Shown here piece by piece: positions 2,551-59,539 of a DNA stretch of 64,000 nt. The translations under genes and the position numbers were made by a program. The DNA is from a virus: IMG/VR virus record IMGVR_UViG_3300045988_074608. One strand, given 5' to 3'. How positions within the stretch are numbered: position 1 is the stretch's first letter; each line of letters opens with the position of its first letter. The notes under the pieces were generated by a model that searched no databases, was not told the DNA's origin, and saw only the letters and a program-made list of their open reading frames with translations.

Positions 2551-2559
2551 AATAATTTA

Positions 2560-8500: not shown

Positions 8501-11500
8501 TTATTTATATCTTCAGCAGACATGTCTGGGTCAAACCTCTAAGCTCCTTGAGAGCCTGCTTTTACAGCAGACTACATCATACACATATCAACTCCATTTT
8601 TAGGATCGTTCATCTTATCATAAAGATGTTTTAAGAATCCGTATGATATACCTTTGAATATTGGGAACAATGCAAACTTATTATAAAAATGGACAGGTGT
8701 TCCATTTTGCATTCTATAACCAAAAGCAGAATATTTCTAAGTAGATATAAGAGCATTGTGTACAATTTCATAAGCTTTTGCATCTGATAAATAACTATTA
8801 TTTTTACCACGTAATATATCAAAAGCCTCTTTAACATTTTCTGTAAATGCACCGCGTTGTTTCAACAAGTTTTCAGCCATCTTGTCGGTTATGAAAGCAG
8901 TACCATCAGTAACATTAACACCTTCCAAATGTTTAGAATCATCGTATACATAACTATTTGTTTCGGATTGAACTTTCTTATCGATGATTTCCAAAATACC
9001 AGCTTCTTTTAACAACTCTTTCTGTTTTTCAACATCCATGTTGTTTACAATCTTGTATATTTCAGCTTTTTCAGCTTTGGATATATCTCGACCTTCGTAT
9101 TCTTGTTTACTTAATAGTATGTTAACACAAGCTTCTCTATATTCACCTCTTTGGAATACTGTTTTTAAAGAATTTACCATTTCACTGGTAATCTACCAGT
9201 CATTTATTTCCGCAATTCTATATTCACTAGGTATTCCAGGTATATCTTCTCTATTGTTAGATCCAGTAGAACCAACACCTCCATAACGTTTAGTTTCATC
9301 AACACCAAATGTTACAAGCTATCCTTTATCATTGTAATTAGTCTTGAAGAATTGTGGCATTCCTGTTACAAATCTTCTACCCTCTTCCATAGACATTAAC
9401 TGTTTGCACATTGTGTCAAATACATAAGCTACTATAGCCTAACCTTCTATTTCTGCTTCACTCTTTAATGAATTATAACGCCTCTCTGTATTACCTATTC
9501 TAGAATTTCTATATGCGTTGGCAATAAGTGCTATTTTATTAACATCTAAGTAGTTATTTTTGTAGTTGAAATATTTAGCATTTTCAGCAGCACTTGACGT
9601 ATTTGTCTATACTTCTATAATACCAAGATCTACAAGATGTTTTAACTCGTCGTCTAATCTATGTCTCAATATATCAGCCACTATTTTTCGTTTTTCCTCA
9701 ATAGGTCGACTAAAATATTTTTCAACTGCTTTATTATAAGATTCGAGTATTCCGTTAGTTGGTGTACGATGTTTTTTTGCATCATCTGTAGATACATCAT
9801 CTTGAAAATTGAATGATATGAAATTATCACCTTCATAAATACCTGCCAATGATGTAAACCTTGCTCCGTTTTTACTACCTGTATGATAGTTTTTAATCAT
9901 TTGTTCGGCAGGAAGTTTATCTTGCTCGCCATTTGGACCATAACCTAATTCACGAATAGTTTTCTCAACATTCCTACGTTCGCATTCGAAATACTCTATA
10001 AATTGATCTAATACATCGTTTTGTTGATATCCTTTGCTTAAATCCTCTAAGTTAAAGAATATCTAACCTGTAAAATGATTAAACATAGGCAGTTTTCCAA
10101 ATGCTGATATCTAATCATCAGTCATTTGACTACTTACTTTAATATTATAGTCAAATCCTGGTAATTTAAATCCTCGTACAGACATGTATGTAGATTTATC
10201 AGACAATGTTGGCATTATTATAAGACCATCAGATAGTTTCTACATTCTTGATATTTGATCTTCACGTTTTCCCATTTCTGAGAATTTAACGCTATCCGAA
10301 CTATACTTAGATCCAGCATCGGTATCAATAGATATTTCGTCTTTTACTTCTTTATTTAATAACTGCTTAGCTATAACAGATCCTCTTTTCTAACCGTCTT
10401 CATCTTCAAATACAACATACTCGACATCTTTCATATCATCCAAAATAGAACCTTTTCTAATCGAACCATCTGATTCAAAAGAAGTGTTCAAATCATCTAC
10501 AACATCTGATACTGTATTGTTTTGAGCATACATATACATTTTAGTATTTCCAGCACCCAATGTCATCATTTCTGATGTTGCCATTTTATATTCAGATGTT
10601 GCTTCTGCAAGCATTGTTATAAATTGATTTTTAGCATATAAGAACGCTCCTGAATATTTACCGTCTTTATTAGAATCTCTTGTAAATACATTTAAATCAC
10701 CTGATTTTACAGCATTATTTAATTTGTCAAGAACTCCGTCTTTTGATATAAGTGCATATATACTAACACCTCCACTTTTACTACTTGTCATCATTTCACG
10801 TAATGATTCTATATAATCAGTACTGTCTGGATTTAATTTGTGCAGTAAATGATAAAATGCAGGTTTTGTAATCATTACACCTATAGAATTAAATGCGTTA
10901 ATTATATTACTAACAATGAAATCAAAATTAGCAACATCATTTATATCATATATTTTACCATTTATATCAATCTTAGTACTATCTCCAATTAAACCTTTTC
11001 TTATTTGATTCAATGTTGTAGCACAATCTGCAAATGTCGTATAATTTCTGTTTATATTGTCATCTTTATTATATAATCCGGTCAAACCAGACCTTACATA
11101 ATCAAACCATGCGATTGGATATTGTCTAGAACTCTAATTAGTATTTGTCTATCTATATCTATATTCGTATCCTTTTTTATTACCTTCTGATTCATTTATA
11201 AACAAGAAGTTAAAGTTAAGTTTTTGTGATTTAATACTCTAAAACAATAACGTAGTAAGTGTCTAATTGTTCTGATTCTATGCGTAAGTAGCACCTTGTA
11301 ATATATCACCTGCTTTACATATAACTTTTCCGTTTTTACCAACAAGGTCTTTAACAAGACGTACTTCAGTAGGATACATAGCTTGTTCACTTCTATCTTC
11401 TGTATTACTTATATAATACTCTGGTTTTACAATAGCTCCATGATAATATACTTTTGGAAAACCTGCATATTTTTCATATTGTTTTTCTGTAAAACGTAGA

Positions 11501-14500
11501 TAAGATTGATAACGTAATCTATACAAAGATTGGGCTATTCTTTCGAACATGTAATCGTTTTCTCCAAGTCTCCTTAATTGATTATATAAATCAGATACAT
11601 TTTTAACATCGTGTAATTCTGATAACAATCTCTGATGTACTGATTTGAAAGATAAAAATACAGGTCTACCCATAGAGTTTACTGTCTAAGGTATTGTTGC
11701 ACGTTTTGGCTTACCATTTTCTTTGACAACTTTTCCATCTTTATCTAAAACGTACATACTTTTAACTACACCAGATGCTACATCTTCTTGTGTTACATAT
11801 CTAAGATTAGGTATAGTACTCAACATCCATTGTATAGGAGCTGCAACATCATCAGACATAGAATGAGAATAGAATTCGTCTGCGTGTCCTTGAATATCAT
11901 CAGAAACAGCACTTGTTATATCACTATCAAGATCTTCTTTTCTTTGCGCGTCTCTGTCTTTTCTTTTGCGAATACCCATCTATTGCAATTTAGATTCCAA
12001 TAATGGTTGAGCTATCTACCAATTCTAGAATAATTCACGTATAATTAATGCATTATCTCGTGTCAATGCAGGTAATTTACCATCTTGTACAAGTTTATCA
12101 AGTTGTTCTTTTGTAGCAGAACCTCCTGTAATCTAAACATACCATTTAGCAAATGGTGAATCTTTTGCTAAAAGTGTCTATCTATCAAATTTAAGCTTTT
12201 CTATATTATTACCGAGAATATCAATACCTTGTTTTTGAACAATTACTGGTAATAATGTTTCAACAACTTCATTTAATTGTTTCTAAGTATATATGTATTG
12301 TAATTGATGATCTTTACCTTCATTGTCCTATATTGTCATGTTAAGACCTTTTGGGAACAATCTGTTAAAACGTTCCATATTTTCTTTCGAAGCTTTACGA
12401 GAAGAGAATTTACCGTGATCTATTGCTCTAAACGTACATGCCATCTTAAGATTACGTGTTCTTATAAAAGCGTTCAATGTATTATACAACCAAGCAAACA
12501 TTCTTAATATTTTATTTTTAGGTTGCCAGTTGTATTTAGAATATGCATAGAACATATCAGCAAGACCTTCAGCAATCTACTCTTCTGATAAATCTTTATT
12601 TTTACGCTTTTTCTTATACCAATTATAAAGAACGTTTCTTTCTTCTTCACTCATTAACATTTCAACAACGTAGTGAAATGATTCATGATATTGTGCATTA
12701 TTTTCAGCTTCGTACGATAATTTAATAGCGGCACTCATACAACGTCCAACAACATCACCATGCTATGTTTTTTCTATAATATCTTTTACTGGAAGTATTT
12801 TAACACTGTCTCCGCATATTCTACGCACATCTTCTGTCGCTTTTTTCAGCCCTTCTTCATCTTTTATAGGATGTTTAGCTTTTTCACGTTGTACCATATT
12901 CCAACCGTCATCACCAAACATATCATCTTGAGCAGATAACATATCATCAATAGATACATCTTGACCATCTATGTCATCTAATACAGTTTCATCAGATTGA
13001 GGTGTTTCAGGTTGCGTGTTTATCCAATCATCGATTGCAGTTTGCATTTGGGCAGATTGTTCTATAATTGCACTAGGTGTTGTATCATCTACAGAAATAG
13101 CTTCAAAATCAGATGTACTTACCAAAGCATCGGTTATTCCAGAATATTCTGACTAGAACCAATTATTTTTAATCATCCACGCAATACCACTTATGTTATT
13201 TTCAACATCGTCTCTTGTTATTACGAATTCATCTGAATATCTGATAGATTGTACATTTGGGTTTTTATCAAACCATTCTTTAACACCATTAAACAATCTA
13301 CTAACCTTTGAATTTTTAAAGTTATCACGTATTAATAATGTATTCTGCACATTCAAATATCCATTTGTTGACAATTCCTGACGAAGTTTTTGCAAATCCT
13401 GATCATTTTTAAGATTATATATTGTTTTAGTGTTACCTCCATCGTAACTCATATATACTTTATTACGATCAAGATTACCATCTTCATCTTTTACATAATC
13501 AAATTGGAATTTACTGTCTGTTGCGACAGCTCCACCTCCGAATCTTATAAGATAATGTAACAATTTAGAATTATCTATAGGACCTTGTATTTGATTGCCA
13601 TCTTGGTCAATTACATTAGCTTTTGATTGTTTCTTTCCTGATATATTTGTTAGAATATCAACAATAAGATCTGCTGCAGATTGTGACATTTTACCAGGTG
13701 TCAATGCTATTAATGCTGTATGAGGTACAGCACCCTGTTCAGAATCTTCAGCGTAATCCAATGGTTTCTGAATATATACAATACCTGGTCTTGACAAATT
13801 CTCATCATTTACAGCTTCTCGTTGAGATGTTCCAGATCCAACCTTATAATCATCACTATCTAATCGTCTTAAAGTACCCTATGAATCCGATATCAATAAC
13901 ATTGGTTCCCCGTTTTTATAATCTAACAAACCATTTATCTAATCGTCTGTTAAATCCAAACGTTCTTTTACATTGCCAGGTTTATTATTATACTGATATT
14001 TACCATTTGTCCTACTAAGTCCTTTTAATACAACTTTTATTTTTCCAGATTTTATATCATCTTTATTCTTTTGATAAAAATCTATAAGTTTATTTCTAAA
14101 ATCTTGTTCAACTGCGTATATAAAAGATATTTCTGCAGTAGCTTCTTTTGAAAGAATTTGTCCATTATATGATATTTCTTTAAATTTCAAATATGCACCA
14201 CATGTAGCAGCAGTATCTGAAAATTTTGAAGCTTCAAAATCTATTACAAATTGTACATTTTTAATAAAATCTTTTTTAGTAGTCCAATCTTTAAATACTT
14301 GTAATGCTTTCCTTTGTGCAGGAGTTATTTGACTTCTATCTTTAGCAAGTCTGTTATAATGTTTTACATATTTATTATTATATACTCTAGGATTTGGATG
14401 AAATTTACCTTGACCAGGACCATTACCTTTGTTAGTTTTATCTGCTAAATGTTGTTCTACAATTGTTTTAAATCTTGTCAAAATATTTTTTTCTCCTTCT

Positions 14501-17500
14501 ACCCATTCTAAAGCTTGTTTAAGAACAGATAATGTATTATATCGATCGATATTTTGTTCGAATTTAGTTACAGCATCGATGTGTGCATTATATTGTTGAC
14601 TAATTGTTGCATCTTTAACATTCTACATTAATGTATCAAGAGCATCTAATTGATGTTTTAATTGTGCAAAACTTAGTTTTACATTTTCTCTAGCTTCATC
14701 TATTTGCTGTTGTATATCATGTAATTGTTCAACATATGTAGTATGTACATATTTAGGGTCCTATATTGCCAAATCGACCATTTGTATAGGTTGTACGTCA
14801 GTTATAGCAAGCAATTCACTCCAGTTATCACGTGGACTTTTAGTAGTTACGGTAATACCCATTAATTGTAAATTACAAACGCTACTACCAGTACATTCCT
14901 AAATCATTTGTGCATATGCATTTAACTAATTTGTATATACTTCTCTAGCAGTGTGTTGTTGACGTCTTCCGAATGCTGAGGTTTTACCATAATCCTTATC
15001 AAGAGCCTCTCTTTTCTTTTCTGTCTAAATATTTCCTCCAACAGTACCACTAACTATTACATCTTGTAATTCAAATGAGTATTTAGATGTTTTAAAATCT
15101 ATAAGAGTTATATTACCATCTGGCGCTATTGCTAAAAGGTCAGGTTCACCAGCTATTTTAACTTTAGTTCCATCTGGATTAGTTTTTTCATAATATAAAC
15201 AAGTTGGTCTTGTATATAAAACATAACCCAAAGTCTCCATTTTATCCTTGAATTTCTTAAGATCATCTACGAGTTTATCAAAAACTTCTTCAGGAATTCT
15301 TTGATCCACATCTTCATAATTCAAGGTTTTACCTGCTAATATATCACGAGCTATTCCATCTATTATAGAACCAGATATTACAGAAGCACCAGGTAAGAAT
15401 AAATTTGTATCCGTATGTGCAAATAATTTAGCGATAGAATTTATAGTTTCATCGCTCTTTAATATATCGTCAGTTTGAAAATAACCCTCAGGATTTATCT
15501 TACATCTCTCTGCTAATTCTGAATCAGTACCATATAAACGAACAGCTGTATTATAATAATCATCAGCCATTTGATTTATGGCTTTTATGTATTCATTTTT
15601 GTAACCTTCTATAACATTTGTACTATCATTCCTCTTAATAGAATCTAACCATGCATCTCTTAGTTTTTGTAATGTATTGGTATTTTTCTTTATAGCATCT
15701 TCCTATTCTTTTGTATTACGGAACTGAGGTTCCATCATACTATGAAGACGACTATACATTTCAATCCTACCATTTGTTTCAATGAAATAGTTATTTCCTG
15801 TACGCCATTCGTAATGATATTTACTATTAGACGCAGAATATTCATCTAATACTTTTATAGTTTTAGATTGATCTTGTGTTATTACAACATTACCATATTT
15901 TATATTAGTTTCTGGCGCAACATACGGAGTTTTAGGCTGTTGTGCAGGTTGCACAGGTTGTACTATAGGTTTTGCAGGAGTTGGATTTAATAACTTCTTA
16001 TAATACCTTGCATAATTATACTCACTTATTGTTATTTCCTAATCATTTAAGAAATATTTAAACTTACCATTTTTCTATTTTCTTTTTTCTAATTTTGCAC
16101 CGTTATTTAACAAATTGACGATTCGCATTTCTTTAGTACGATAACCATCATCACTTATAGCTCCAAGATTAGTTACTAACTAATCAAATTTCTTTTGATT
16201 ATATTTTCTGCTATTTGCATAATCCGCTAATCTCTAAATAGAACCTTTATAATCAGATGTTAAACCAGGAGCCTTAGCTGCAGCACTTTCATAAGATTCT
16301 CTATCCATCCATTCTTTTTGAAAATCTTCGAAAAGCTTCATACTAGAACTTCTATAATTATCAAGTCTATTACGTTCTTCGTCAGTAAGTTTATCAAGTT
16401 CAGAATCGTTTAATGCTACATAATCATCGTATTGATCTTTTGTCTTTTTCAAACTTTTACCACGATCATCATATTCATTTCTAGAATCAAACCATTCTGC
16501 CTTATCAAACTATTTGTTAGTTTTGATTAATTTATCATTTTCAGAATCATACTCATAAACTCTACGTATACCATCTATGTCATCACGTACAACATATGTC
16601 TTACCATTTCTAGTATACGTATTATTATCATCGGTTATTACTGCAGAATCTAATTTCTGTCTATCTAACTCGTCGTTATAGAAATCATCTTCAACACTCT
16701 GACGTAACAATTCATCTTCTTTTTTATTTTTCAAATATGCTTCAACAGAACTCTTAGCAAATTTTGGATCTTTTACTAATTTGTTAAGCATTTCATTATT
16801 GAATTGTAACTGTATCGAAGCATCAGAAAGATCGCGTTCTGCTGCAACATAATCATCGTCTATATGGAATCCTTTGCTTTCTGCAAACTTTTTCACATCT
16901 TCTTCGGTGTCTAATGCAATGTTATCACCATATACCTCGTGAATACGATCTTTGGTTTTTTGGACGTCATAATCAACTTTAGCTTTTACAGATTTTCCAC
17001 CTTTCAACTCTTTGATTTTTTGCATATCATTCAACAATTGTTGAGTCTACATTTTACCAATAAGTTGATGTATTGTTATAAGATTACTATTATTTGCTTC
17101 ATAAGCACGCTGTAAATCATCAAACATGTTTACAAACTTAGCATCATCTTTATATTTATCTGCAAGTTTATATCTACCGTCTTCCCCTTTTTCTATTTTA
17201 AACTGTAACTAATTTATTCTAGGATCACTTGCTCTATTTGCATCTAAGTAATCTTCAAATGACTATGTTACATTTAAACCGATAAGATTATTTAATTTTT
17301 CTTTATAAAATTGATCAGCTTCTGCAATAGAATTTTGTCTACCTGCTAATACTGCAATGTATGTATCAAAGTTTTTCTACATCACAGAACGTTCATTTGT
17401 CTTCTTTATAGAAAGATTATCTTTTATTTTCTATTTCCATGATTTATTTTCATCTTTCTCTAAAAATCCAGCACTTGTTGCGGTTTTACGTACATCTTCA

Positions 17501-20394
17501 TTTTGTTGTAATATTCCGACTGTATTTACAAGTTTTCTAAGGTTAGCAACATGATCCGACGGTATTCCATAACTAATATTATCTTTATTACGCTCTTTCA
17601 TATCAGATGTGATACCTTCGTACTAATCTAACATCGCTTTAATTTTAGAATAATTACCTTTACGTAATTCTTTAGCAAATATAGACGCTTTCGCAAGATA
17701 ATCTTTATCTGAAATATCGTCAGCTAATAAATTATTTAATATAAGATGATCGAGTTTAAACTGTTGATATGTATTAGCTGCACCTCGTACAGCTATATTA
17801 GGACCACCTTGTATCAAAGCTCCTAAAATACCACCATGCATTTGTTCCCATATATCACGTTCTTGTGCTGTAGCTTGTTCAGGATCTTTAAATAGAAAAC
17901 TAGACCATAATTTAGCACCATCCAATACGGTCATAGGAAGCTGATTTAAAACATTATAATAAGCATTAGACATCTCTTCTACACGCTCATATTGTTGTTG
18001 TTGCTGTAAACCTTCTTCAGCACCTTCGGAATACATACTTGCTCCAGCTCTCCATCCGAAATCTTTAGCAACCTTACCAGCAGTACCTAAATATCTTCTA
18101 TATCGTAATACTCTTTCTGGTATAGCAGTAGCCATATCTATAACATTTGCAGAATGCTGCAATGATTTTTCTGCCATTTTTGCTAAAGCTTTGTCTATTT
18201 TACCTTGTGCAAAATTTCCTACTTTTTGCATCAAGACAGGTATTCCAGATTCTTCTATAAGATCTTTTGTAATACCTCTTACAAAATTAGCAGGTGCATT
18301 TAAAGTTGTTCTAATACCATTTACAGCATTTGTAACAGCTGCATCTCCACCTTCTGATAATAATTGTTGAACTGCCTTTCTAAGCGATGTTTTACTACCA
18401 TCTGCATATTTGCGTAAAGCCATTTTAAACGCTAACCTGTCTCCTTTTGCAGCTAATTTATCAGTTAGAAATCCAACCTTAGAATTTTTCGCAATACCTC
18501 CCATAGGCATACAAGACACAATAGCATCTGTTAAAGAATCAAGAGTATTAACACCCATTCCTTGATAATATTGTTTTGCAGAACCTGCGGTAGCATCTAA
18601 TAAAGTCTGTCTTATTTTAAAATCATTTGGAACATATTTACCGATATAGAAAGCATGTAATATATCATCAACAGTAGCACCTTCTCCAAGCTCTTTTCTA
18701 CCTTCGTTTACAAATTTATCAAATTGATCATTTTCAATAAGAAGTTTTTTAGCTAATACATCTGTAGCATCTGATACGTTTGCAAAGTTCTCATCTGCTC
18801 CAGCAGCCATAGAAGATGCAAAAGAAACAGCTCCAGATGCAAGTGCTATAGAAGCACCTGCAGTTTCAGGTGCTAATATTGAACCGAGTAAAGCTGTAGC
18901 ACCGGCTCCCATTGAAATTAAAGTTTTCTCTGGAGAAGACATTGATGAAGCGAGAAGACTTGGTGCCATCCACATTTTTGCAGGATTATACCATGCTAAT
19001 GAATTAGCAGCAGCTTCTCGTTTTCTATAATAATTCGAAACTTCATATCCTTTTTGATATTTCTCCAAATCTTTTTTATCAATCTCATAATCATTTCGCC
19101 ACAAAGCTTTCATTTGTTCAGCTCTACTATTGAATTGTTTATATATATTATCCAACTATGTACGAGCTTGTTTTGCTGCAGCAACATCTCCTTTCTCAAG
19201 AGCCGCTTTATACTTTGTGATATTTGCACCAAATCCATGTAGTTTTGAACCAACGCCAGTTCCGAAATCCAAATATCCAATATCGTGTAACAAAGACTGT
19301 GCATCAGAAACTAAATCTCCAGCCCACGTATGATTTTCAAAAGATATTAAATCTTTAAATACGTTTTCTTGTTTTTCTTTCTTTTGTTGGAGTTGATTTA
19401 TTTTTTCTTTAAGATTGTCCCAATTAAGACTCTCTTCCTTACTGATACCTTTTCCGCTAACATAACGATTTCTAATATCTTCAAACTATGCCTAAGTATT
19501 TTTAAGTTCAGTTACAGTTTTTTGATATTCATCTAATGCTTCTGGATTTACCATGTTTTGTTGCTACATTAATGTATTCATTTTACCAAGACTTGTAGCC
19601 ATCTAGGTTTCGTTTTTAGAAATACCAAAAACATGATATGCATCTTGCAACAAAGAATTTTTTCTATTTTTATCGATATTATCTGCAATTTTTTTACCAC
19701 TCCATAATAAAAAAGGAGCTGCTATCGGATTCTAAATACTTTGTAATACAGCATTAGCTATAGGTAACATGCTATCATAATAACCTTTTGGAGCTGTATC
19801 ACCATCGTCCTATTTAAAATCCTCTGGATGCATTGTTTGATACCAACGTACTGTTTTATCAATTTCGTAATCCAATGCTTTTGCCTAACTTCTCAATTGA
19901 GCAGCTGCTTTAGGATTAGATTTTTCAATACTTGTAGCTGCGTCATTATAAGAATCTCTATCTTCCATAAGTCTTCGTACTCTACTTCTGGAAGCTCTTT
20001 TATCTAAATTTTTATTTTGTTCCCGTTGTCTATTTTCAGCATCTCTCTGTTCTTTTGTGAACACTTTTCTTCCAGGAAAAGACCATTTATATTTAGATAG
20101 ATTCGGATTTTGTGGTATCAGAGAAGTAAAATCGGTATTATTATTTTGCTGATTGTTATTCTGCCGATTATTATCCTACTAATCATTTGTATCTGATGAC
20201 AATTCTTTATTTTTACGATCAGCATCTCTTTTCAAACGTTCGTTTAATTGTCTCTCAGCTTCTTCATCTTCTCTCTGTTTTCTTAAAATATCCTATCTTT
20301 TTCGCTCTTCTGATTTTCTCAGACGCTCCATATATTTCGCACGTTCGTCATCACGAACTCGGTACGAACCTCTTATTAAGCTATTTATATCCAT
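2560..20394 (-). CDS. Giant virion protein (about 5,944 codons) containing the crAss-type virion RNA polymerase motif plus nuclease-like and DUF1848-like domains; TAG read as sense
   Basis: ATG at 20394 lies 2 nt after the TAA (20397-20399) of the upstream gene, and the nearest upstream in-frame stop is TAA at 20434-20436. All 23 track ORFs from 17623..19155 down to 2899..3153 are in this one frame. My codon-by-codon check of every gap found only TAG (about 95 by hand count) and no TAA or TGA until the tandem TAA TAA at 2557-2562. Confidence 0.75.
3340..4155 (-). other. DUF1848-like (putative Fe-S, TIM-barrel-like) domain inside the giant ORF
   Basis: The translation runs from IAVASEHTDPVFF to LRIDPIIPG to CAEPCRMDGISIEGC to RFR(TAG)LCSCYGGKTDLLKYNSNCASSCVYCYAHHN. 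This matches my recollection of the DUF1848 layout (N-terminal S-x-R/H-T-D-P-x-F-Y/F, C-terminal CxC...C...CxYCYA cysteine cluster). It is a motif-level call only. Confidence 0.45.
7594..7608 (-). other. DxDxD (DFDID) putative catalytic metal-binding motif of the crAss-type virion RNA polymerase
   Basis: Track ORF 7462..7731 reads ...TAQTGSDFDIDKLYMSTLF. The five codons GAC TTC GAT ATT GAT map to 7608..7594. A DxDxD loop in a very large virion protein is the signature described for crAss-like virion RNAPs. Confidence 0.55.
14914..15141 (-). other. PD-(D/E)xK (RecB/Cas4-like) nuclease motif set inside the giant ORF
   Basis: GEPDLLAIAPDGNITLIDFKTSK supplies D...DxK (D codon 15139-15141, K codon 15091-15093). 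It is followed by REVYTN(TAG)LNAYAQMI. If the TAG at 14926-14928 is read as Gln, this gives the family QxxxY motif exactly (Q-L-N-A-Y). Confidence 0.5.
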
Positions 20395-44650: not shown

Positions 44651-46450
44651 TTAGGCTGCTACGTTATAAGCACCTTTATTCGTAATGTCTGTATCCTCAG
44701 CATCACAGTACAGAATACCACAAGACAGCGGATTACGAAGCATAATACCCTCCTCACCGAGGAAGTGAACCTGGTAACCATCACGGCTGTTAGAACGTAC
44801 TGTATTAATACTATTGCTATATCCAGCTGGAGTTACAGAACCTGCTGTACACCACTGTACAAACTCACGACCCTTACGACAAACCTTAACAACGTTTGCC
44901 TGACCATCACGCTGACCAAGATCAACAAACAAGAATGTGTATGACATCAATGGTTTACCTGTAACCGGATGCAACTGACGGAACATTTCCATATTATCAA
45001 ACAGAGCACAACGCTTAACTGTAAGCTCAATACCGTTAGTCATCTTATATGTAGTAAACTGACCACCGAGTGTCAACTCCTGACCAGAACCAGTGATAAA
45101 CTTAGTATCAGTAAGCTGGAATCCAGCTGCCTTCTCACGAAGTACACGGTCAAATTCTCTAATCATTTATGTTTAGTTCATATCGTTAATACAAACCGGT
45201 TTTTATTGACCAAATAAAAACCCTCATATTTTCATATGAGATCAGACTATATCTTCAACCTATAAAAAGGTTGTCCACCATTTCGATTTCACTTGAAACC
45301 TACTCCTTTCGGATAGTCGTTGAACGTTCTTAACTAAATAAGTTAAGCTTCGCTGCTGATTGCCTCCAACTTAATGGTAAGGTTTTCCAGCAATTAGATG
45401 GATTTTCAAGTAACATTACTGCTACAGGGAGCTATGTTGTTAACCCATTTCTCCTGTCAAAGCGATAAACTTACGCTCCTGTGTACCGAGAATATTATAA
45501 CACAGATCGAACAGATAATCCTCAAGCAGCTCAGCTGTCAAATGTGTATAATAACGTACATTAGCAGGACTAATCTGCTCAAACAAACCTGCAGAGATTG
45601 GCACAGGTCTTCCATTTTTACCTCTAAGAGCATATGTACCATCAGCATTACGGTTAGAACGAGAGAACAGAAGGAACTTCTCCTCACGACGTTTCCACTC
45701 ACGAAGAGCCAACCAATACTGATAATCAGACCACAAATAAGAAGTCTTACCTGTCTCAGGATCCTTCAATGCGATAGCAAGTACTGTAGAATAAGCATCA
45801 CCTGTAATATCGTAAGAAAGACGAAGAGTTGTAAGGTTATTACGCATCTTAAATGGAGTCTGATAGCTGATGATATCTGCCTCATCACTGTACTCCTCGT
45901 ATGCAGAACCAATACGGCTTACCTGACGACCAGGAAGAAGGAACTCACCAGGAATATATGCTCCTGCGAAACCATCTGCTACATAGCATTCATATACCCA
46001 TGTAGAACCATCCTGATAAGGTACACCATTTACACGTACCTGATAGTTTACATTATCGAAAGCAAGTACAGCACCAGGACCGAAAGCTTTTTCCTCAAGT
46101 CCAATGTAGATAGGAGCTCCATTCAAACCTGGAGTAACAGTATTCGCATTGTTAGAAGTAATCTCTGCACCATCAGCCTTAGCCCAACGAATATTTACAG
46201 CCTTCTCCTGGTCAACCATTACTGACCACTCGTACTCACGATTCTCAATAGTCATAGTCTTACCGAGACCACCAGTAATCATGTCGATAGCAGTAGATAC
46301 ACCATCATCCTTAGTACCAAATACCAAAGAAAGAAGACCACTAATCTCATGAGGTCTTGTAAGAAGTGCGTTTGAAATCATGTTCTCATCAACCAAATCA
46401 GAGAATTTACGACCTCTGTAAAGCTGAAGATTATTTAAAAGTGTATTCAT
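44651..46450 (-). CDS. Major capsid protein, two exons (46450..45443 and 45163..44651) joined across a group I intron; 506 aa, no TAG
   Basis: Track ORFs 45440..46450 and 44651..45166 are in the same frame and are separated by 279 nt of ribozyme-like sequence. The predicted junction is ...LTGEMG/IREFDRV... It is a GC-enriched gene placed after the scaffold-like gene, as in crAss-like head modules. Confidence 0.75.
45164..45442 (-). mobile_element. Group I intron (IA2, T4 td-like), ORF-less, 279 nt
   Basis: The canonical P, Q, R and S elements occur in order on the minus strand: AATTGCTGGAAAACC, CAATCAGCAGC, GTTCAACGACTATCC, GAAGATATAGTCTGATC. The 5' exon ends in GGU, followed by UAA. The intron ends in ...AACAUAAAUG. 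Several stretches (AACGACUAUCC...GGAGUAGG...CAAGUGA...UCGAAA...GACAAC...AGAUAUAGUCUG) match my recollection of the T4 td intron. Confidence 0.85.
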
Positions 46451-50786: not shown

Positions 50787-53267
50787 TTATTTTTCTCCTG
50801 TTACTTTATTCTTTAATGCCGTTCTTGCTTTCAATTGCTCACGCTCCATTGCAGCATCATCTTTCTATTTTTGTAACTTTGATTCATGCTACATTTGCTC
50901 TTTAGCAAGTTTTATTTTCTGATCCTCTATATCACGTTTCTGTTTAATCTCGTAATCTTTTGTATATTGATCAGCACGAATCTTCATCTCGGCTGTCGCA
51001 TTTTTTGCGATTTCCATAGGATCTGGAATATTATTCATATTAGCATCCTTATTTTCTGTACCACGGTATGCACTAATTTCAGCTACTGCAATTTTAGTAG
51101 CATTATCTTGATCAATCTGATAACGTGTAAGATCCATCTGAGCTTCTTGAAGCATGAGTTCTTGCTCTTTAGCTTGATTCTGCATTTCTTGAATCTTCTG
51201 TTCTTGTTCTGCTTGAGCTTGTTGCTGCTGCTGTGCTTGTTGTTCTTGACGAGTCTGCATATCTTTGAGCTTCTATTTAATGATATTAAAGTTATCATTT
51301 GTAAGAATCTCTGCTGCTTCTAACAACGATGCACCATTTTGCATAGCTGGTTGTATAAGTTGTTGTAATTTCTATATGTTTTCAAGATCTTTAGATGTAT
51401 CTGATACAAACACATCCATATCTTCATAATAGAATTTCTGTGTCACATTCAAAAAGGCACGTTCTCCATTATCAAATATATATTGTAACTTATCTTTACC
51501 TGTAGCTTGCCATGCACCTTTTGCTGTATTTAACAACATATTCAATACATGTCTTTTAACCTAAGCATGTACCCAGAATAAAGGTTCTGTAATATGTGAA
51601 GATTGTGTAACACTGCGTTCTACATTACCTACAAGTTCTGATGTACTTATTGCACCCTAACGCTGTTCTGTAATACCTGATATAGTTCCGGCAAGTTGTT
51701 CTATCTTATCCATAAGCTGTATATATTCAGCTATTACATTTGACATTGTAAGATCAAGAGCTGTTATCTGATTAAACTGCGCAGGTTTACCACCTTCACG
51801 ACCTGGGACATTCCATTGTGTATCATATGGGTTTATAAAATTAACACCAACACTTGACAAATAATGCATCCATTTATCAACTGTAATACCCATAGATTTA
51901 GGTATCTGTGTAACGTCCATATTTACAACCTTACCTTTATCTCTAGCTATTGCAAGTTCTAGTCTATACCATAATACAATATACATATATTGCAAAGGTT
52001 TAAGAATACTTACAAGAGATCTCGGTCTACTATTTGTATTACTATATACAGCACCACAATAAGGTAGTTTCTAACTATTAGGATTATCAATACTTACATG
52101 TTGGTACTCAATAGGTTGTATACCAAAATATAAATCATTACTGCATCTATAACCCTCCCAAACTTCGATAACCCAATCTGGTTCTATAGATATTTCATTT
52201 CCTGTAGGTTGATATGTTTCATCAACAATGTCTACCTACATCTAACCCTATTCGTCTTGTGTTGTCACATAGTTTATTTTCTTAAAAGATTTCCAACAAC
52301 AGTGCCATACGTTTACATTATGATTACCTTTTTCATCATATATAGGATTATCATAAAAATGTAACTAAATACCTCTGAAATCATCACGAATACCGTGTTC
52401 TCCTAGATTATTTGCAGGTACAGCGTTTATTAACTCTTCAAGCTTAATAAGATCTTTTTCTGTAAACTTATCATAATATCTATCATAAACCTCTGTAATA
52501 GGTAAACGCATTCTTCTACAACACCATGCTCCATCTTCTATAAATTCCAAATCAGGACTTTTATCATAAGAAAAATACATAGGGTTCACTCTTTCCATAT
52601 AAGGCTCTGAATTTAAAACACCAACATAATATACTTCCTAGCCGCTAATGAGTGCATCTTTCCAGCCTTTGATAAACTCGTTATCGATGCCTAATTTTTC
52701 ACGCAAATATGTAAGTGTATGATATGCAGTGTTTTCTACAACATCCTTATAATCTTTGTCCATGTATTTAGCAATCTATTCTGGAGGCATTATCTCTCCA
52801 TTTTGAAGCTGCTCCTAAAACTATTGCTATTCTTCAGGACCCATTTGTGCCATTACTGCAGCTTGCATGTATTGCATTAATAGCTATTTCTAAGTTTCCA
52901 TTAATTCGGAAGTAGCTTCTTGTGATGTACGAACTACTCTAAAATTCAATGGTCTCTTAGTTTCCTCTCCGATTAGAAGATCTATTTTTGGTCTAATGAT
53001 ATTAAAATCCTAAGGTGTTGCAGGAAAACCTTCTTCTACCTTAAACGGATTAGTTATTTTCTTAAAATCTTTTTCATCGAAGATACTGTTATACAGATTA
53101 TAATAAGTCTGTATCTCTCCATGTGCAGTATGCGTCTATCCCCCTGAAACGATATTGCCTTCGCCAATAATATAATTTACGCAATCATGCTGCCATTTCT
53201 CATTTTTCTTCGATAGCGGTAATTTCTGCTAAGGGAATCTCGAATTATATAAATTATCTTCTACCAT
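50787..53267 (-). CDS. Portal protein (826 aa), Gln/Glu-rich C-terminal tail
   Basis: The ATG at 53267 lies 3 nt after the TerL TAA. Track ORFs 52365..52598, 51657..51995 and 50889..51260 share the frame, and the gaps I checked contain TAG only. The stop is TAA at 50787-50789. The position after TerL and the size fit a crAss-like portal. Confidence 0.7.
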
Positions 53268-53270
53268 TTG

Positions 53271-56200
53271 TTAAAAATTAAATATTGACGAATCTTCTTC
53301 CTAAGGACCGTCGTCCCACCATTGACTACTAAACAATGGTTTTTCAAAGAGTTCGACTTGTTTATTCTGTTCTTTAGCACTAGATACTTTTACTTGATAT
53401 AATTCTTCTCTATAAATCATAACCATGCATAGTGCTATAACACGGTCTACATTACGAACCTAATCATCCATTATTAATTCTTCTATTAAAGGTTCGCTAA
53501 ATATTCTTTCTATATTTGGATGTCCTGGTTCATATTCTTCCATCATCCATTCTAGTATTAAACCTTCGCCATATGCTCTTATTTGTTTTGTCATATGACA
53601 ACCTTTTCTACGCTATACTGTAGAGTTTTTAAACAATTCACTAATTACTTTATCAGGCTAATCAGCTAATAAGTAATCGCAATGTTTATTTGTAAAATAT
53701 GGGTATATACCTTTACGTTCGTTCTCAAATAATAACCTAGCGTTATAAAATAATAACAACTTACGAACGTTTTCATAATACTCTTCTGCTGTATCTGGTC
53801 TACCAGAATATTCGGCTACTATTACATCTGTCCAAGCTTCTCCTGCTTGTACACGTTTAAATATAAATGTAGACCCTAATGAATTTGTAAAAGATTCATC
53901 ATGGTCATAAGGGTCACATCCTCCTATATATAATCCAAACGGAGGATCCTTTACTGGGTACTCCCATATAACAACTGATCCTGCAGGTTTCTAATCTTTC
54001 TTTAGTGGATAATTAGTAATATCTCCAGTTTTCTTTTCTATTGCTATAACTCCACCGTCACCATCCCATTGCAAATCAACTATGTGTTTCATACTCTATA
54101 ATTTTTTATTAGTACGAATTCTTGTAAGTTGATCCATTAATAGTTTGCGCGGAAATATGTTTTTACCAAGCTCTAATATAGCTTCTTGTGGTTTTATCGG
54201 ACGTTCTGATATAAATCTATCTATGGATTGCTAACTAGCACCACCATCTTTAATAATGTTACGTTGTTTTATAAGTTCCTCAATTGTTTTTTCACGAAGA
54301 CTGTTTCCATCTTCATCCATATAGATATATTTACCATCATCGTCAAACGATTCAAGATTACTCCATGCAGGTACGAAAAAACCACATTCTGTTTGTTCTG
54401 CATTATCATCCCATATATTTGGAAATGATAGAACATTATAAGCTTTTGGTTTATAAAATAATGCTTTCAAACCATCGAACGACGCACCTTCTGTTCCGCC
54501 TGTGTTATGTGTAACAATACCGTTGCATATATAGTTATGTTGTTCGTCTGCTGTAAGATTATATATATCTTGTTCACCAATATCTTCAATATTTACAATT
54601 TTTTCAGCATGTACCCCAAGTACGTATTTATGATATTGAGCAACATGTTCTTGTGTGTATAACATCATCAAATCTAATGCTGATTGTTTATATGTAACAG
54701 CACACGATATACATTTTGCGAAATTTCCAATACTTGTTATATCATTAATTGTCAATCTCCAGTGTCCTGGTCCATCTTTTATAACTTTACCATTAGAAAC
54801 GTGCTTTCGATATTTAGTTTTAATAAAGCGTATGCTACAATGAACACCGAAATGTATCAACACTTCCTCAATCTATCGTAATAATGGTTCCTAACACTAT
54901 GTTAATGTTATACGAGGTTTTCCGGATTTATCAATTTGTATATATCCGTCGGTGTCAAACAAACCACCTATTAATTCCGCTAAAGATTCTTGATCATATT
55001 GATGTATATTTACTGGTAATCGTTTCTTATCTTTTACCTGACCATAAATACCGAGTTCTCGTAATTTTGGACAAATTCCTTTTATGCGAGTTTCTTTATA
55101 AATTTTACCATCTTTAGTAATACGAACTGGTCTATCTAACGAAGTATTAAAATGTGTTTCTATGTATTCATTTATTTCGTTATCACAATTTGACAACCTT
55201 GGCGTTTTATCAAAACCATAACTACCATCGCCAATTAACCAACCAACAACTCTAGGTTCCCACATTTTTTTAGTTCCAAAGAACGGAATGTTGTCGATAA
55301 CGCCGACCTATTCACCAATTTTACATTTCGAAGCTTCATGCCACTTCCATTGTTTCATTGTTTGATTTTCTTTACGTTTTCCAGGAACTCTTTTTGTCAA
55401 ACCGGCATGTGACCATAAAATCGGGTGGTCCGTACTACATTCTAATATTCTTCCAGTGTTTGTGGTTATTCTAACACATGGTTTTTTAGCCGGTGGATTG
55501 AAATGTGATATATGTTGCTAAACAGCCTAATAAGTATCCCAACCTAAAATACCATCCTCTTTATGTAAATCTTCAATATTAACACAATTTCCAGAAGAAG
55601 TCCATACTTTTGTACCTTTACATACACATCCAAAGGATATCATCAATCCAAATGCAACACCATCATCCGTTTCTACAGCAGGTTGTTCAACACGCCAAGC
55701 ATCTAATAAACTTGGGAATTTACCACTTTCTTCCCACAATACTAATCTACCACGAGTACCACGAATACGTTCAGGATCGTTTTTCAATGTAATACCTGTA
55801 ATACTTGATAGATAACCCTATTCTGTCTATTTACCAAATTCGTCAGTAACTTTGTAACCAGATACTCGTTCCATTCTTGTAGATGTCAAACGTTGTTTTG
55901 CCCATGCTGTATTCTTATCTATAAAATCCATGATCTGCCATGCTTTTGTAAGCAATCCATCTCCGATTAAGAATTTTTGTTCTGATGCAACTGCAAAATT
56001 TTTAGAACCTGGTATGAGTTCGTAATTACGAACTAACATTGAAGCACCTTTAAAGCTATATCCACGTTGTCTACATTTTAACACTGCCATGTGTTTACCG
56101 ACTGTTTCTGCTTCTTCTACAGCATTAAAATAATAATAATCATAATCCCAAAATTTAGGGAAGTCAAATATACGCTCTCTTCTTTTTCTTGTATCACCAT

Positions 56201-56453
56201 TTCTATCAACATATTCTGTTTCTATTAATCGCATAATTGGACAATAGTTTAAATAAAAATAATGATAACCTGTAATCTAATCTCCATCTGGAGCAGTATA
56301 CCCATTTAAACATCTATCTGTTTCTCGCTCCCAATATTTAACATAATCTGTAGTACCTCTGGGAGCTAAGGTATAACATTTATGCACTTTAAAGAATTCT
56401 GCAGCTTCACAGAATTTTTTTGTGTTTTTTATATGCTAATTAAAATCAACCAT
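53271..56453 (-). CDS. terL: Terminase large subunit precursor (1,060 aa; about 685 aa after intein removal)
   Basis: The ATG at 56453 overlaps the upstream TAA (TAATG). Track ORFs 55827..56234, 55527..55787, 54897..55265 and 54231..54863 share the frame. I translated from 54231 to 53271 by hand and found TAG only, ending at TAA 53271-53273. The nuclease motif is GLYIGGCDPYDHDES. Confidence 0.85.
54504..55628 (-). mobile_element. Intein (375 aa) with a LAGLIDADG homing endonuclease domain, inserted in TerL
   Basis: The N-terminal splice junction is ISFG/CVCKGTKVWTSSG, a Cys-1 block A-like sequence. The C-terminal junction is NGIVTHN/TGGTEG, an HN followed by Thr+1. The two LAGLIDADG motifs are VVGWLIGDGSYG and ELIGGLFDTDGYI. 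Its length is divisible by 3. It contains six in-frame TAG codons (55527, 55518, 55308, 54897, 54891, 54873). Confidence 0.85.
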
Positions 56454-57780: not shown

Positions 57781-57920
57781 ATATGCTTTTTTTATTATTT
57801 TTAATAGCGCAGTATTTACGAATCGAACGTAAATCTCTGTATTCATTCCATACAGCGAAATTCCATTATTCCAATACCGCTGGTAGCCCCACTAGGATTC
57901 GAACCCAGACTAAAAGGGTT

Positions 57921-58907
57921 CAGTAAACTCGACTGTTGCATCCAATCCTAAGATCAGTCTTCTCGTTCAGTCTGTCACGCTGCTTTCGCTTGCGCCTCGT
58001 CAACATTGTCTTCCGAGTCAATTAGAGAAGATTCTAATAACGGATTATTTATTATCCCGCTATCATCCAATATTTTCCAATGACTGTTCAACCAAAAATT
58101 ATCTTTGTTGTACATGATAGTTCTAGTACATGTTTTCACACGTTTTGTTTTAACTTCATTATTCTCTATTAAAGCTTTTGCAGCTTCTACAAGAGAACCA
58201 TATCTTGCTAACTCATTCCAATTTTCATCATACCTTATTATATATTTTTGATTGGAATGTTTTTGACCAGATTCGTTAACTATTTTTGTAACAACACATC
58301 TACGTATTCCAAGAATTGATGATACTTTTTTAACATTTTTAACTTCGTTATATTTTTTTTCAACTATGTTTCTTATTTCTTCCGAAATATCATATTTAGA
58401 ATTATTAAGTTGTTGATTTCTACTACCATATGTAGAAGTCTGACTATGACAATTAGGACATAGAAATCTAAGATTCTCTAATCTATTGTCATTATTTATT
58501 CCGTTTATATGATCAAGTTCTAAACTTAACGTTTTCCCTTGCCATTCGGTACATCCACATATTGCACATTTATATGGTATTAAGTTGTTTTTAATTATGT
58601 ATCTTCTCAATACTGTACGTTGATGTTTACAATTTTCTTTTAGTATATCTTCTTTCTTTACATTGTTTAGCTTGGTAGTTTTTATAATAGCAGATCTCCC
58701 TTTGAATATAGAATGGTCTAAATTCAGATCATCCATTCTTCTTTTTACTTGAGAATATCCCCAAGAGTTTCCTTTAACTGTATAACCAAGTTTAAACAAC
58801 ACTTCAGATATTGTTGAACTTTTCTTGAGTAACTCAACAAACTGTTCGTCTGAGAGTTTATATATTTTATTTTCCATTATTATATATTCAATTATTCATT
58901 GGACAAA
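57921..58907 (-). mobile_element. Intron in the tRNA anticodon loop (between nt 35 and 36), probably group I, carrying an HNH homing endonuclease ORF
   Basis: The 5' exon ends in U and the intron ends in G, and this is the only junction that gives a 7-nt loop. There are only 30 nt upstream and 54 nt downstream of the ORF. The GC-rich 3' end contains weak P/Q/R/S-like strings (AGCGGGAT, AATCCGTT, GACAGACTGAACG, ACAGTCGAG) and a GC-GAAA-GC tetraloop hairpin. I could not find a convincing P1/IGS pairing by hand. Confidence 0.5.
57975..58877 (-). CDS. HNH homing endonuclease (300 aa), no TAG
   Basis: Intact track ORF. The HNH motif is CAICGCTEWQGKTLSLELDHINGINNDNRLENLRFLCPNCH. A helix-turn-helix-like segment (VKKVSSILGIRRCVVTKIV) follows. 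It lies entirely inside the tRNA intron. Confidence 0.85.
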   Translation of the reverse strand: MENKIYKLSDEQFVELLKKSSTISEVLFKLGYTVKGNSWGYSQVKRRMDDLNLDHSIFKGRSAIIKTTKLNNVKKEDILKENCKHQRTVLRRYIIKNNLIPYKCAICGCTEWQGKTLSLELDHINGINNDNRLENLRFLCPNCHSQTSTYGSRNQQLNNSKYDISEEIRNIVEKKYNEVKNVKKVSSILGIRRCVVTKIVNESGQKHSNQKYIIRYDENWNELARYGSLVEAAKALIENNEVKTKRVKTCTRTIMYNKDNFWLNSHWKILDDSGIINNPLLESSLIDSEDNVDEAQAKAA

Positions 58908-59009
58908 AGAGCCTTCTGTGCTAACCGTTACACCATAGGGCAATATGAGGCATTTTAACGTCGGAGCCTCTCGACGGTTTATACAATGAAAGTTTTCAAT
59001 AGCTTATTG

Positions 59010-59058
59010 TAGTAATTCGGGAATCGAACCCGAGATTTGATATCCTCCAAGATTACTT
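59010..59058 (-). other. tRNA-like minihelix (acceptor stem plus T arm only), a possible tRNA remnant
   Basis: The minus strand reads AAGTAAT-CTTGGAGGATATCAAATC-TCGGG-TTCGATT-CCCGA-ATTACTA. It has a canonical T arm and a 6-7 bp acceptor-like stem, but no D arm or normal anticodon arm. Confidence 0.35.
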
Positions 59059-59065
59059 GTTATTG

Positions 59066-59395
59066 TTACTTCTTACGAGTAACCCAATTCCAAAATCTCT
59101 TAAAGATATTTGGTTTCTTTTTGCAAATACATTCTTCACAAGGATCCTCAAGTTGTATTTTATTATTCTCAAGGTCTGCCATGTAATCCGCCATAGCACT
59201 ATTGATTTCATCTGCAACTTGTGCAAAATATGCATTTACTGCATAATCACGTATAATATTCATTTCAACATCGCGCATCGCATTAAACTTAGCGAGAACT
59301 ACACACTTATACGGATCTGTAACTTGTGTAATTTTTGTAAGATCTATAACGATCTTCTTACTTTTATCGTTTTTCTTCATCTTCTTCGTATTCAT
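59066..59395 (-). CDS. Hypothetical protein (109 aa), no TAG
   Basis: Intact track ORF with ATG start and TAA stop. Confidence 0.55.
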   Translation of the reverse strand: MNTKKMKKNDKSKKIVIDLTKITQVTDPYKCVVLAKFNAMRDVEMNIIRDYAVNAYFAQVADEINSAMADYMADLENNKIQLEDPCEECICKKKPNIFKRFWNWVTRKK

Positions 59396-59398
59396 AAT

Positions 59399-59539
59399 TC
59401 AATTATGCGAACAATATTTTAAAGTTTTATTGTTTTTATATCGACGTTTTAGTTTAAATTTAAATAATTCGTTTAATAGAATATCATAATTGAAATCTAA
59501 ATCTTTCATTTTATCAACTATATCCTTAAATTGAAACAT
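59399..59539 (-). CDS. Small hypothetical protein (46 aa)
   Basis: Hand-found ORF with ATG at 59539 and TGA at 59399-59401. It fills the gap between neighbouring genes. Confidence 0.3.
   Translation of the reverse strand: MFQFKDIVDKMKDLDFNYDILLNELFKFKLKRRYKNNKTLKYCSHN

Follow-up and report, generated by a model that had tools for sequence, protein, structure and literature searches.

The 64,000-nucleotide stretch of DNA analysed here (IMG/VR virus record IMGVR_UViG_3300045988_074608, hereafter the window) carries on its minus strand a gene for the large terminase subunit (TerL) into which 375 codons, very probably encoding an intein, are inserted in frame. The window phage is a TAG-recoded gut crAss-like phage (Crassvirales), and its nearest named TerL relatives, at 80-83% amino acid identity, are cr131_1, cr124_1, cr130_1, cr7_1, cr272_1, and cr273_1, which belong to the Crassvirales, Suoliviridae, Oafivirinae (the 'Delta group' of Yutin et al.). 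With TAG as a sense codon, 61.3 kb of the 64 kb falls in open frames of 150 codons or more, compared with 23.2 kb under the standard code, and the fact that long open frames exist only with TAG as sense supports TAG-to-Gln recoding (genetic code 15). TAG codons are confined to minus-strand genes in the interval from 2.5 to 57.2 kb, and no gene between 57.2 and 64 kb has one; Yutin et al. 2021 (PMC7886860) describe this 'late genes only' pattern in crAss-like phages. The features of the TerL gene are as follows:

56453..53271, minus strand: TerL precursor open reading frame, 1060 codons, of which 17 are TAG, closed by TAA and otherwise free of TAA and TGA
55629..56453, minus strand: N-extein, 275 codons with 4 TAG, including the Walker-A-like KCRQRGYS and the Walker-B strand LVLWEE, and ending ...GLMISFG
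55628..54504, minus strand: putative intein, 375 codons (1125 nucleotides) comprising Hint-N, LAGLIDADG endonuclease, and Hint-C, with 6 TAG and no TAA or TGA
55602..55628, minus strand: block A, CVCKGTKVW; Cys1, the predicted N-terminal nucleophile, is found in at least 90% of the family
55413..55442, minus strand: block B, ECSTDHPILW, with Ser65 where Thr is usual and an invariant His68
55215..55250, minus strand: LAGLIDADG motif 1, VVGWLIGDGSYG, with invariant G133-D134-G135 (Pfam)
54939..54983, minus strand: LAGLIDADG motif 2, LAELIGGLFDTDGYI, with invariant D225, D227, and G228 (Pfam)
54504..54566, minus strand: blocks F and G, IYNLTADEQHNY-ICNGIVTHN, with penultimate His374 and terminal Asn375
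54501..54503, minus strand: Thr+1 (ACA), the predicted C-extein nucleophile, which is the invariant T276 of the TerL FGTGG motif
53271..54503, minus strand: C-extein, 410 codons plus the stop, with 7 TAG and the nuclease domain including GGCDPYDHD (D472 invariant)

Both sequence and modelled structure support the identification of the host gene as a large terminase with ATPase and nuclease domains. The 685-residue product expected after splicing matches phrog_6681 (PHROG terminase large subunit) with an E value of 2e-144, its AF2 model (pLDDT 87.5) matches T4 gp17 in Foldseek (E 3.5e-14) as well as the T7, Sf6, P74-26, HK97, and D6E terminases, and the portal gene (53267..50787) lies directly downstream. 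Among PDB chains, the spliced TerL sequence matched only HLA, at chance level (E ~0.06), and a Pfam search of the TerL extein gave no match. An earlier, sequence-only reading of this locus had described an insert at 54504-55628 in TerL; its coordinates, its 375 codons, and its frame stand, but the strand had to be corrected, since the plus-strand translation of this interval, which we rejected, is full of stops and the feature is therefore placed on the minus strand. Read in the reverse-complement frame, the insert starts with CVCKGTKVW (Cys1) and ends with NGIVTHN followed by Thr+1 (ACA), as that reading had stated, and its removal joins ...GLMISFG to TGGTEGASFDG in frame. From base composition, the probability of finding no TAA or TGA is 2e-11 over the 375 codons and 9e-31 over all 1060, and the two alternative frames of the insert are interrupted by 18 and 39 TAA/TGA codons, so that the open frame cannot be put down to chance. 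By contrast, the insert has 6 in-frame TAG codons versus 8.4 predicted from composition, with 7 and 6 in the off-frames, which indicates that TAG is simply not avoided.

The anatomy of the insert supports a class-1 intein with an embedded two-motif LAGLIDADG homing endonuclease. Taken alone, it scores above the curated Pfam cut-offs both for Intein_splicing (PF14890, 42.2 bits versus 35.8) and for LAGLIDADG_3 (PF14528, 38.4 bits versus 22.5), in agreement with the two LAGLIDADG motifs and the intein profile suggested before, and the two motif cores are WLIGDGSYG and LIGGLFDTDGYI. In the intein family alignment (24-89% identity), Cys1, Ser65, Asp67, and Asn375 are at least 90% conserved and His68, G133-D134-G135, D225, D227, and G228 are invariant, including the acidic residues D134 and D225/D227; with C1, His68, and Asn375 kept across the family, the junction residues do correspond to conserved intein blocks. 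The C-terminal 53 residues (blocks F and G) align to the solved DnaB intein (E 5e-5) and also to gp41-1. The AF2 precursor model, built on a database copy of the window allele (P0128), has a pLDDT of 83, and its confidence drops only at residues 275-280 and 651-658, that is, at the two junctions. Its top PDB matches in Foldseek are the TliVMA intein (2e-17), then the PI-SceI, PI-PfuI, PhoVMA, and PI-TkoII inteins (with TliVMA, PI-SceI, and PI-PfuI spanning E 2e-17 to 2e-14), followed by TerL ATPase domains, and it also matches the LAGLIDADG enzymes I-Tsp061I and I-OnuI. LAGLIDADG open reading frames are also common in introns, and the window genome does contain group I introns (at 45223-45452 in the major capsid protein gene and, putatively, in a tRNA gene described below), so that the insert might instead be a group I or II intron carrying such a frame and spliced out of the mRNA, not the protein. 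We give this alternative a negligible probability: the insert is exactly in frame without a stop at either junction, Hint blocks A, B, F, and G are present together with the Cys1, His-Asn, and Thr+1 junctions, the modelled Hint fold matches solved inteins, and Rfam at the gathering threshold detects no intron at the TerL insert.

Genomes of the same species fix the insertion point. Contigs L013-L016 (95.8-97.6% nucleotide identity over TerL and its aligned flanks) match window positions 56453-55629 and continue straight at 54503-50779, without exactly the 1125 nucleotides 54504-55628, which sets the boundaries to the single nucleotide. Window and L013 are identical for 21 nucleotides upstream and 41 nucleotides downstream of the junction, the site in the empty allele reads ...TTGATGATATCCTTTGGA|ACAGGCGGAACAGAAGGT..., and the intein-less relatives cr124_1 and cr130_1 are colinear across it (AFGLMIAFG|TGGTEG, no gap). 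A comparison of 47 diverse crAss-like TerLs without an intein (33-83% identity to that of the window) shows no variation at the flanking residues G275 and T276 and at least 90% conservation of G277 and G278, and in the TerL model the strand following the Walker-B strand (237-241, LVLWEE) spans residues 270-275 and ends exactly at the insertion site. From this position in alignment and model we strongly infer that the ATPase coupling motif is interrupted by the intein and that TerL would therefore be unable to package DNA before splicing.

The six in-frame TAG codons ascribed to the intein were all located on the minus strand, and each can be compared with the nearest relative, Logan contig L010:

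55527..55529, minus strand: intein TAG codon 34, CAG in L010
55518..55520, minus strand: intein TAG codon 37, CAA in L010
55308..55310, minus strand: intein TAG codon 107, CAA in L010
54897-9, 54891-3, and 54873-5, minus strand: intein TAG codons 244, 246, and 252, all CAA in L010

Because all six are CAA or CAG in L010 (and Gln in P0001), the comparison supports TAG as a sense codon, most likely for Gln, and the intein, which lacks TAA and TGA, appears to be translated with the code of the phage, as had been proposed. Likewise, where any sequence of the alignment has TAG, the commonest codon opposite it is one for Gln (CAA/CAG), which makes up 31 of 63 alternatives for the intein and 99 of 194 for the exteins. 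Seven homologous inteins occupy this same site (those of the window, Dulem virus 42, four IMG/VR contigs, and L010), and all seven sit in TerL genes with TAG codons. The intein resembles its host gene in TAG density (1.60% vs 1.61% in the exteins), TAG share of Gln codons (0.33 and 0.39), GC content (.330 vs.334), and GC at third codon positions (GC3,.203 vs.190), and its nucleotide identity to L010 is uniform with that of its surroundings (N-extein 77.2%, intein 78.8%, C-extein 79.2%). Between species, synonymous divergence (dS) is saturated and its ratio to non-synonymous divergence, dN/dS, is at most ~0.1 in both intein and exteins. This match in TAG density, GC, and divergence supports a long residence of the intein in recoded genomes. 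L010 has TAG at none of the six positions, and the positions vary across the seven homologues, while all six are present in the same-species copy L017; the individual TAG codons turn over quickly and are young. The long residence claimed by the sequence-only reading therefore fits the composition and divergence of the element but not its individual TAG positions. Gln codons and TAG appear to interchange within the intein at the same rate as in TerL, a direct measure of how fast such TAG/CAR exchange proceeds in a selfish element relative to its host gene. If the insert had instead arrived recently from a standard-code genome, its TAG codons would be damage or true stops and TerL a pseudogene. 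Such an arrival might be suspected from the absence of the intein in many genomes of the species and from the capacity of inteins to move horizontally (see L008 and L009 below), but it is very improbable in view of the equal TAG density, GC, and GC3 of intein and exteins with no TAA or TGA in 375 codons, the six TAG codons kept in L017, with 18 synonymous and 3 non-synonymous changes, a divergence from L010 equal to that of TerL (78.8% vs 77-79%), the seven of seven homologues in TAG-containing TerL genes, and the many near-complete genomes with the occupied allele.

Within the species, the TerL intein is polymorphic, with empty, intein-a, and intein-a' alleles at ~95-98% nucleotide identity in TerL and its flanks. 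This result is new, and the earlier reading missed both this lack of fixation and the prior publication for the phage group discussed below. A search with the spliced TerL retrieved dozens of distinct, ~100% identical, intein-less proteins of 685 residues, one of which (P0071) occurs on 176 contigs, along with the 1060-residue allele P0128 (from a 71-member cluster, with contigs as long as 98 kb); many contigs of 95-98 kb bear the occupied allele. A third allele of the same species (P0138, L019 3001-6147) has 1048 residues and a different LAGLIDADG intein of 363 residues, 35% identical to that of the window and with 8 TAG, which is inserted six codons downstream (TGGTEG|C...HN|S), where the required +1 Ser stands in place of the Ala of the empty allele. 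Across the TerL family, the FGTGGxxG motif holds three adjacent intein micro-sites.

Sequence variation also bears on the activity of the endonuclease. Within the species, nucleotide identity is 98.1% in the intein versus 97.3-98.1% in the exteins, and the comparison of window and L017 gives 18 synonymous and 3 non-synonymous changes in the intein, of which 14 and 1, respectively, fall in the endonuclease domain (dN/dS 0.017). Between the IMG/VR contigs L008 and L009, the intein is 95.2% identical in nucleotides and the exteins only 84.6% and 85.8%, with sharp edges, a footprint that indicates a recent event, either transfer of the intein or gene conversion, involving two TAG-recoded phages. 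Taken together, allele diversity, purifying selection, and this transfer indirectly support an active endonuclease. An intein that splices but has a dead endonuclease, and that persists by descent alone, would be in keeping with its divergence from L010, which resembles vertical descent, and with the lack of a co-conversion tract at the junction in the species. We nevertheless consider it unlikely, given the strong purifying selection on the endonuclease domain, the invariance of both catalytic acidic motifs, the intein-sized transfer between L008 and L009, and the occurrence of occupied and empty alleles side by side.

On the combined sequence and structural evidence, the insert is very probably a canonical class-1 LAGLIDADG intein, long resident and probably homing, in the TerL of a TAG-recoded crAss-like phage. 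Several observations weigh against this interpretation. Block B has Ser instead of the usual Thr three residues before His, and in block F (IYNL) Asn stands at a position that is Asp in many class-1 inteins; both substitutions are family-wide and hence probably tolerated. These non-textbook residues would also suit a domesticated or splicing-dead Hint/LAGLIDADG module kept in the mature terminase, but we hold this to be highly unlikely because an invariant ATPase motif, located where a core beta-strand ends, is interrupted by the insert, because the family has kept the nucleophiles as well as the final His-Asn, and because exact empty alleles are found within the species, a hallmark of a mobile element and not of a fixed domain. 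Moreover, the assignment of FGTGG as ATPase motif III is based on spacing, predicted structure, and a weak hhalign match of the 47-sequence crAss TerL profile to T4 gp17 (44 columns, local, 12% probability), in which RLVLWEE aligns with T4 AMIYIDE (250-256). This weak match places FG|TGG within a few residues of the C-motif of T4 gp17, TTT 285-287. As for homing, the single-nucleotide polymorphism pattern around the junction, compared between occupied and empty alleles of the species, was uninformative as to a co-conversion tract. Finally, the suppressor tRNA gene of the window genome is interrupted (see below).

In the mechanism that we propose for this canonical intein, the 1060-residue precursor would be made only if an amino acid, most likely Gln, is inserted at TAG, presumably through the tRNA(CUA) that the phage itself encodes, and the ATPase of the precursor would stay inactive until the intein removes itself, since the insertion site lies between the invariant G275 and T276. 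Splicing would proceed through an N-S acyl shift at Cys1, attack by Thr+1, and cyclization of Asn375, and the final ligation of the exteins would yield ...SFG-TGG.... During co-infection, the endonuclease would cut empty TerL alleles and repair would copy the intein into them, a homing cycle that would explain why empty and occupied alleles coexist in one species. It is reasonable to suppose, as the sequence-only reading did, that packaging needs both TAG suppression and protein splicing.

A TAG-containing TerL intein in a crAss-like phage is already known, because Yutin et al. 2021 (Nat Commun 12:1044, PMC7886860) reported that in the Delta group 'TerL typically contains an intein' and described TerL inteins containing TAG codons in these phages. 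Their example, cMAG OBYQ01000140 (Fig. 7b), has the same phage group, host gene, and kind of intein ('Hint-Hop', intein plus homing endonuclease) as the window, but it carries two TerL inteins whereas the window has one, the second site near D472 being empty. Insertion-site anatomy, the analysis of TAG turnover, and within-species polymorphism are absent from that work and are added here. With TerL inteins the commonest phage inteins and TAG-bearing ones already shown, the finding as first given matters little; the empty, intein-a, and intein-a' alleles, on the other hand, provide a clean natural example of the homing cycle in an abundant gut phage species. Among the best 150 TerL family representatives (50%-identity clusters), 57 have one or more insertions of at least 100 residues, which cluster around extein positions ~130 (14 cases, Walker-A-like R128/G131/S133), ~240 (7 cases, Walker-B E242), ~270-280 (19 cases, the FGTGG motif of the window with its three micro-sites), and ~470 (7 cases, nuclease D472). 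The window element is an ordinary and probably active class-1 LAGLIDADG intein at a TerL hot-spot motif.

The solved class-1 LAGLIDADG inteins TliVMA/PhoVMA (7qsu, 7qst), PI-SceI (1vde, 1ef0), PI-PfuI (1dq3), and PI-TkoII (2cw7) share with the window element a Hint domain split by a two-motif LAGLIDADG endonuclease, Cys1, and the terminal His-Asn, and the model matches them with Foldseek E values of 2e-17 to 1e-8 and TM of 0.42-0.68 normalized to the target, at a sequence identity of 12-16%. They reside in other hosts (V-ATPase, RNR, polymerase) and, unlike them, the window intein has Thr at +1, Ser in block B, Asn in block F, and TAG sense codons. In a survey of actinobacteriophages, TerL was the most-invaded phage protein, with 293 of ~800 inteins (bioRxiv 10.1101/2025.01.02.630785). 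As in the window, these actinobacteriophage TerL inteins target nucleotide-binding ATPase parts and are patchy among close relatives and, as in the crAss TerL family, they use several independent insertion sites (Kelley et al. 2016; bioRxiv 10.1101/2025.01.02.630785); however, they belong to standard-code systems with TerL sequences unrelated to that of the window, and their sites lie in alpha-helices of the ATPase domain, whereas the window site is in a loop after a core beta-strand.

Related inteins and insertions occur elsewhere in these phages. In cr131_1 (L002 ~2911-4204) and cr7_1 (L003 ~2530-3841), an intein is found at the nuclease motif of TerL (GG|CLTPGEKV...NILTHN|CDP), and within a few codons after it a stretch of ~370 nucleotides, probably an adjacent intron, shifts the frame before ...DDHDDSFTN resumes; the RefSeq TerL proteins of both phages are annotated as truncated (833-845 aa). 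The same intein family as that of the window (CVCAGT...THN, 35-42% identity) is present in a different, Gly/Ala-rich phage protein (P0011-P0027, ...GPWG|intein|T/S/C...) and at the same HN|TGG site of a distant TerL (P0046). Close relatives carry an intein in the portal gene, a ~1.07 kb insert with Hom_end_hint/Hom_end matches (L010 10604-11679, L017 8668-9737) which the portal gene of the window does not have (site 51782-51786, minus strand). In Dulem virus 42 (L001, PP511876 1-3200), GenBank shreds the TAG-recoded, intein-bearing TerL into ~12 small coding sequences labelled 'terminase' (four times), 'LAGLIDADG-like domain protein', and hypotheticals, an annotation artefact of the standard code. 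The practical value of these results lies in annotation, as standard gene callers shred TAG-recoded TerL, and TerL is the usual phylogenetic marker for Crassvirales.

The interrupted suppressor tRNA is the more novel lead. ARAGORN and Rfam found no suppressor tRNA in the window, but the same-species contig L017 has an intact tRNA(CUA) (ARAGORN; Rfam tRNA 56 bits) at the position matching window ~57.9-58.9 kb. The corresponding features of the window are:

58908..58942, minus strand: 5' half of the putative suppressor tRNA(CUA), nucleotides 1-35, ending ...CUCU (U35), identified by comparison, in-silico joining, and covariation
57921..58907, minus strand: insert in the tRNA anticodon, 987 nucleotides, ending in G, with an HNH open reading frame and a group-I-like core
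57881..57920, minus strand: 3' half of the putative suppressor tRNA(CUA), nucleotides 36-75, AACCC...GGGGCUACCA, identified by comparison, joining, and covariation
58877..57975, minus strand: HNH endonuclease open reading frame in the insert (Pfam HNH, E 1.8e-4)
~58070..57921, minus strand: conserved group-I-like RNA core, the last ~150 nucleotides of the insert, overlapping the tail of the open reading frame

The insert lies directly after anticodon position U35 and its last nucleotide is G. Its HNH protein has 28 relatives (55-93% identity) in crAss-sized contigs, and deletion of the insert in silico restores an ARAGORN tRNA(CUA) in 20 of 29 loci, the window included. The two tRNA halves covary, with 97% of cells paired versus 86% when shuffled and 48-57% when slid, and ten pairs show compensatory changes, three of them in the acceptor stem and three in the anticodon stem, both of which span the insert. 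The RNA core has the helix order P2, P3, P4-P6, P7, P3', P8, P7', with 98.8% of cells paired versus 34-47% when slid and 16 compensatory pairs, values somewhat inflated by a structure derived partly from the same alignment. Rfam RF00028 gave no group I match to the HNH-bearing insert in the window or in eight relatives, and inspection by eye revealed no convincing P1 or internal guide sequence. At the same tRNA spot, L013-L015 have a different insert of 189 nucleotides, with a weak full-length match to RF00028 in L013 (26.6 bits, E 1e-4). On balance, these sequence comparisons somewhat favour a self-splicing, HNH-bearing group I intron in the suppressor tRNA.

Group I introns are known in bacterial tRNA anticodon loops, for example in cyanobacterial tRNA-Leu(UAA). 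'Enigmatic' tRNA introns have been described in Lak megaphages (Devoto et al. 2019, PMC6784885). Like these, the window insert lies within the anticodon after a U and ends in G, has a core in P3-P8 order with covariation, and coexists as intron-bearing and intron-less alleles; unlike them, its host is the amber-suppressor tRNA of a recoded crAss-like phage, it has an HNH open reading frame near the 5' end, and its core is not recognized by Rfam. With the suppressor tRNA gene interrupted, TAG decoding would depend on a predicted RNA splicing step, and we lean slightly towards packaging needing three nested self-splicing steps: the HNH-bearing group-I-like intron would leave the tRNA anticodon, the tRNA would read the 17 TAG codons of TerL (six of them in the intein), and the intein would then splice itself out and restore the ATPase motif. 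We found no report in the literature of such a dependence from RNA splicing through TAG decoding to protein splicing. Intron-split tRNA(CUA) genes, invisible to ARAGORN and Rfam, occur in at least 20 crAss-sized contigs and could account for some of the recoded genomes without detectable suppressor tRNA noted by Yutin et al. 2021 (PMC7886860). They bear on why suppressor tRNAs are sometimes 'missing' and on the manner and timing with which TAG decoding is turned on in recoded phages.

Two further tRNA-like structures flank this locus. A well-formed cloverleaf directly 3' of the suppressor tRNA (57807-57880, minus strand) is conserved in L013, L015, and L017; we did not accept its ARAGORN call as 'tRNA-Ile(aat)', as it has a 9-nucleotide anticodon loop (UGGAAUGAA). 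On the other side, a tRNA-like T-arm/acceptor minihelix (CUCGGGUUCGAUUCCCGA; 59016-59200, minus strand), conserved in L013 and L017, weakly resembles the 3' portion of tmRNA (14 bits, E 0.003).

Elsewhere in the window, the group I intron of the major capsid protein gene, on the minus strand, has no open reading frame (Rfam RF00028, 108.5 bits) and splits the gene into exons 46450..45440 and 45166..44651, which have zero TAG codons, whereas the neighbouring late genes have 1-4%. A single open frame of 5,944 codons (2560-20394, minus strand) contains 96 in-frame TAG codons (1.6%). In the early region, same-species contigs have an extra ~390 nucleotides (with a 125-codon open reading frame; L013 1662-2051) without counterpart in the window at 59404/59405, another small presence/absence polymorphism.

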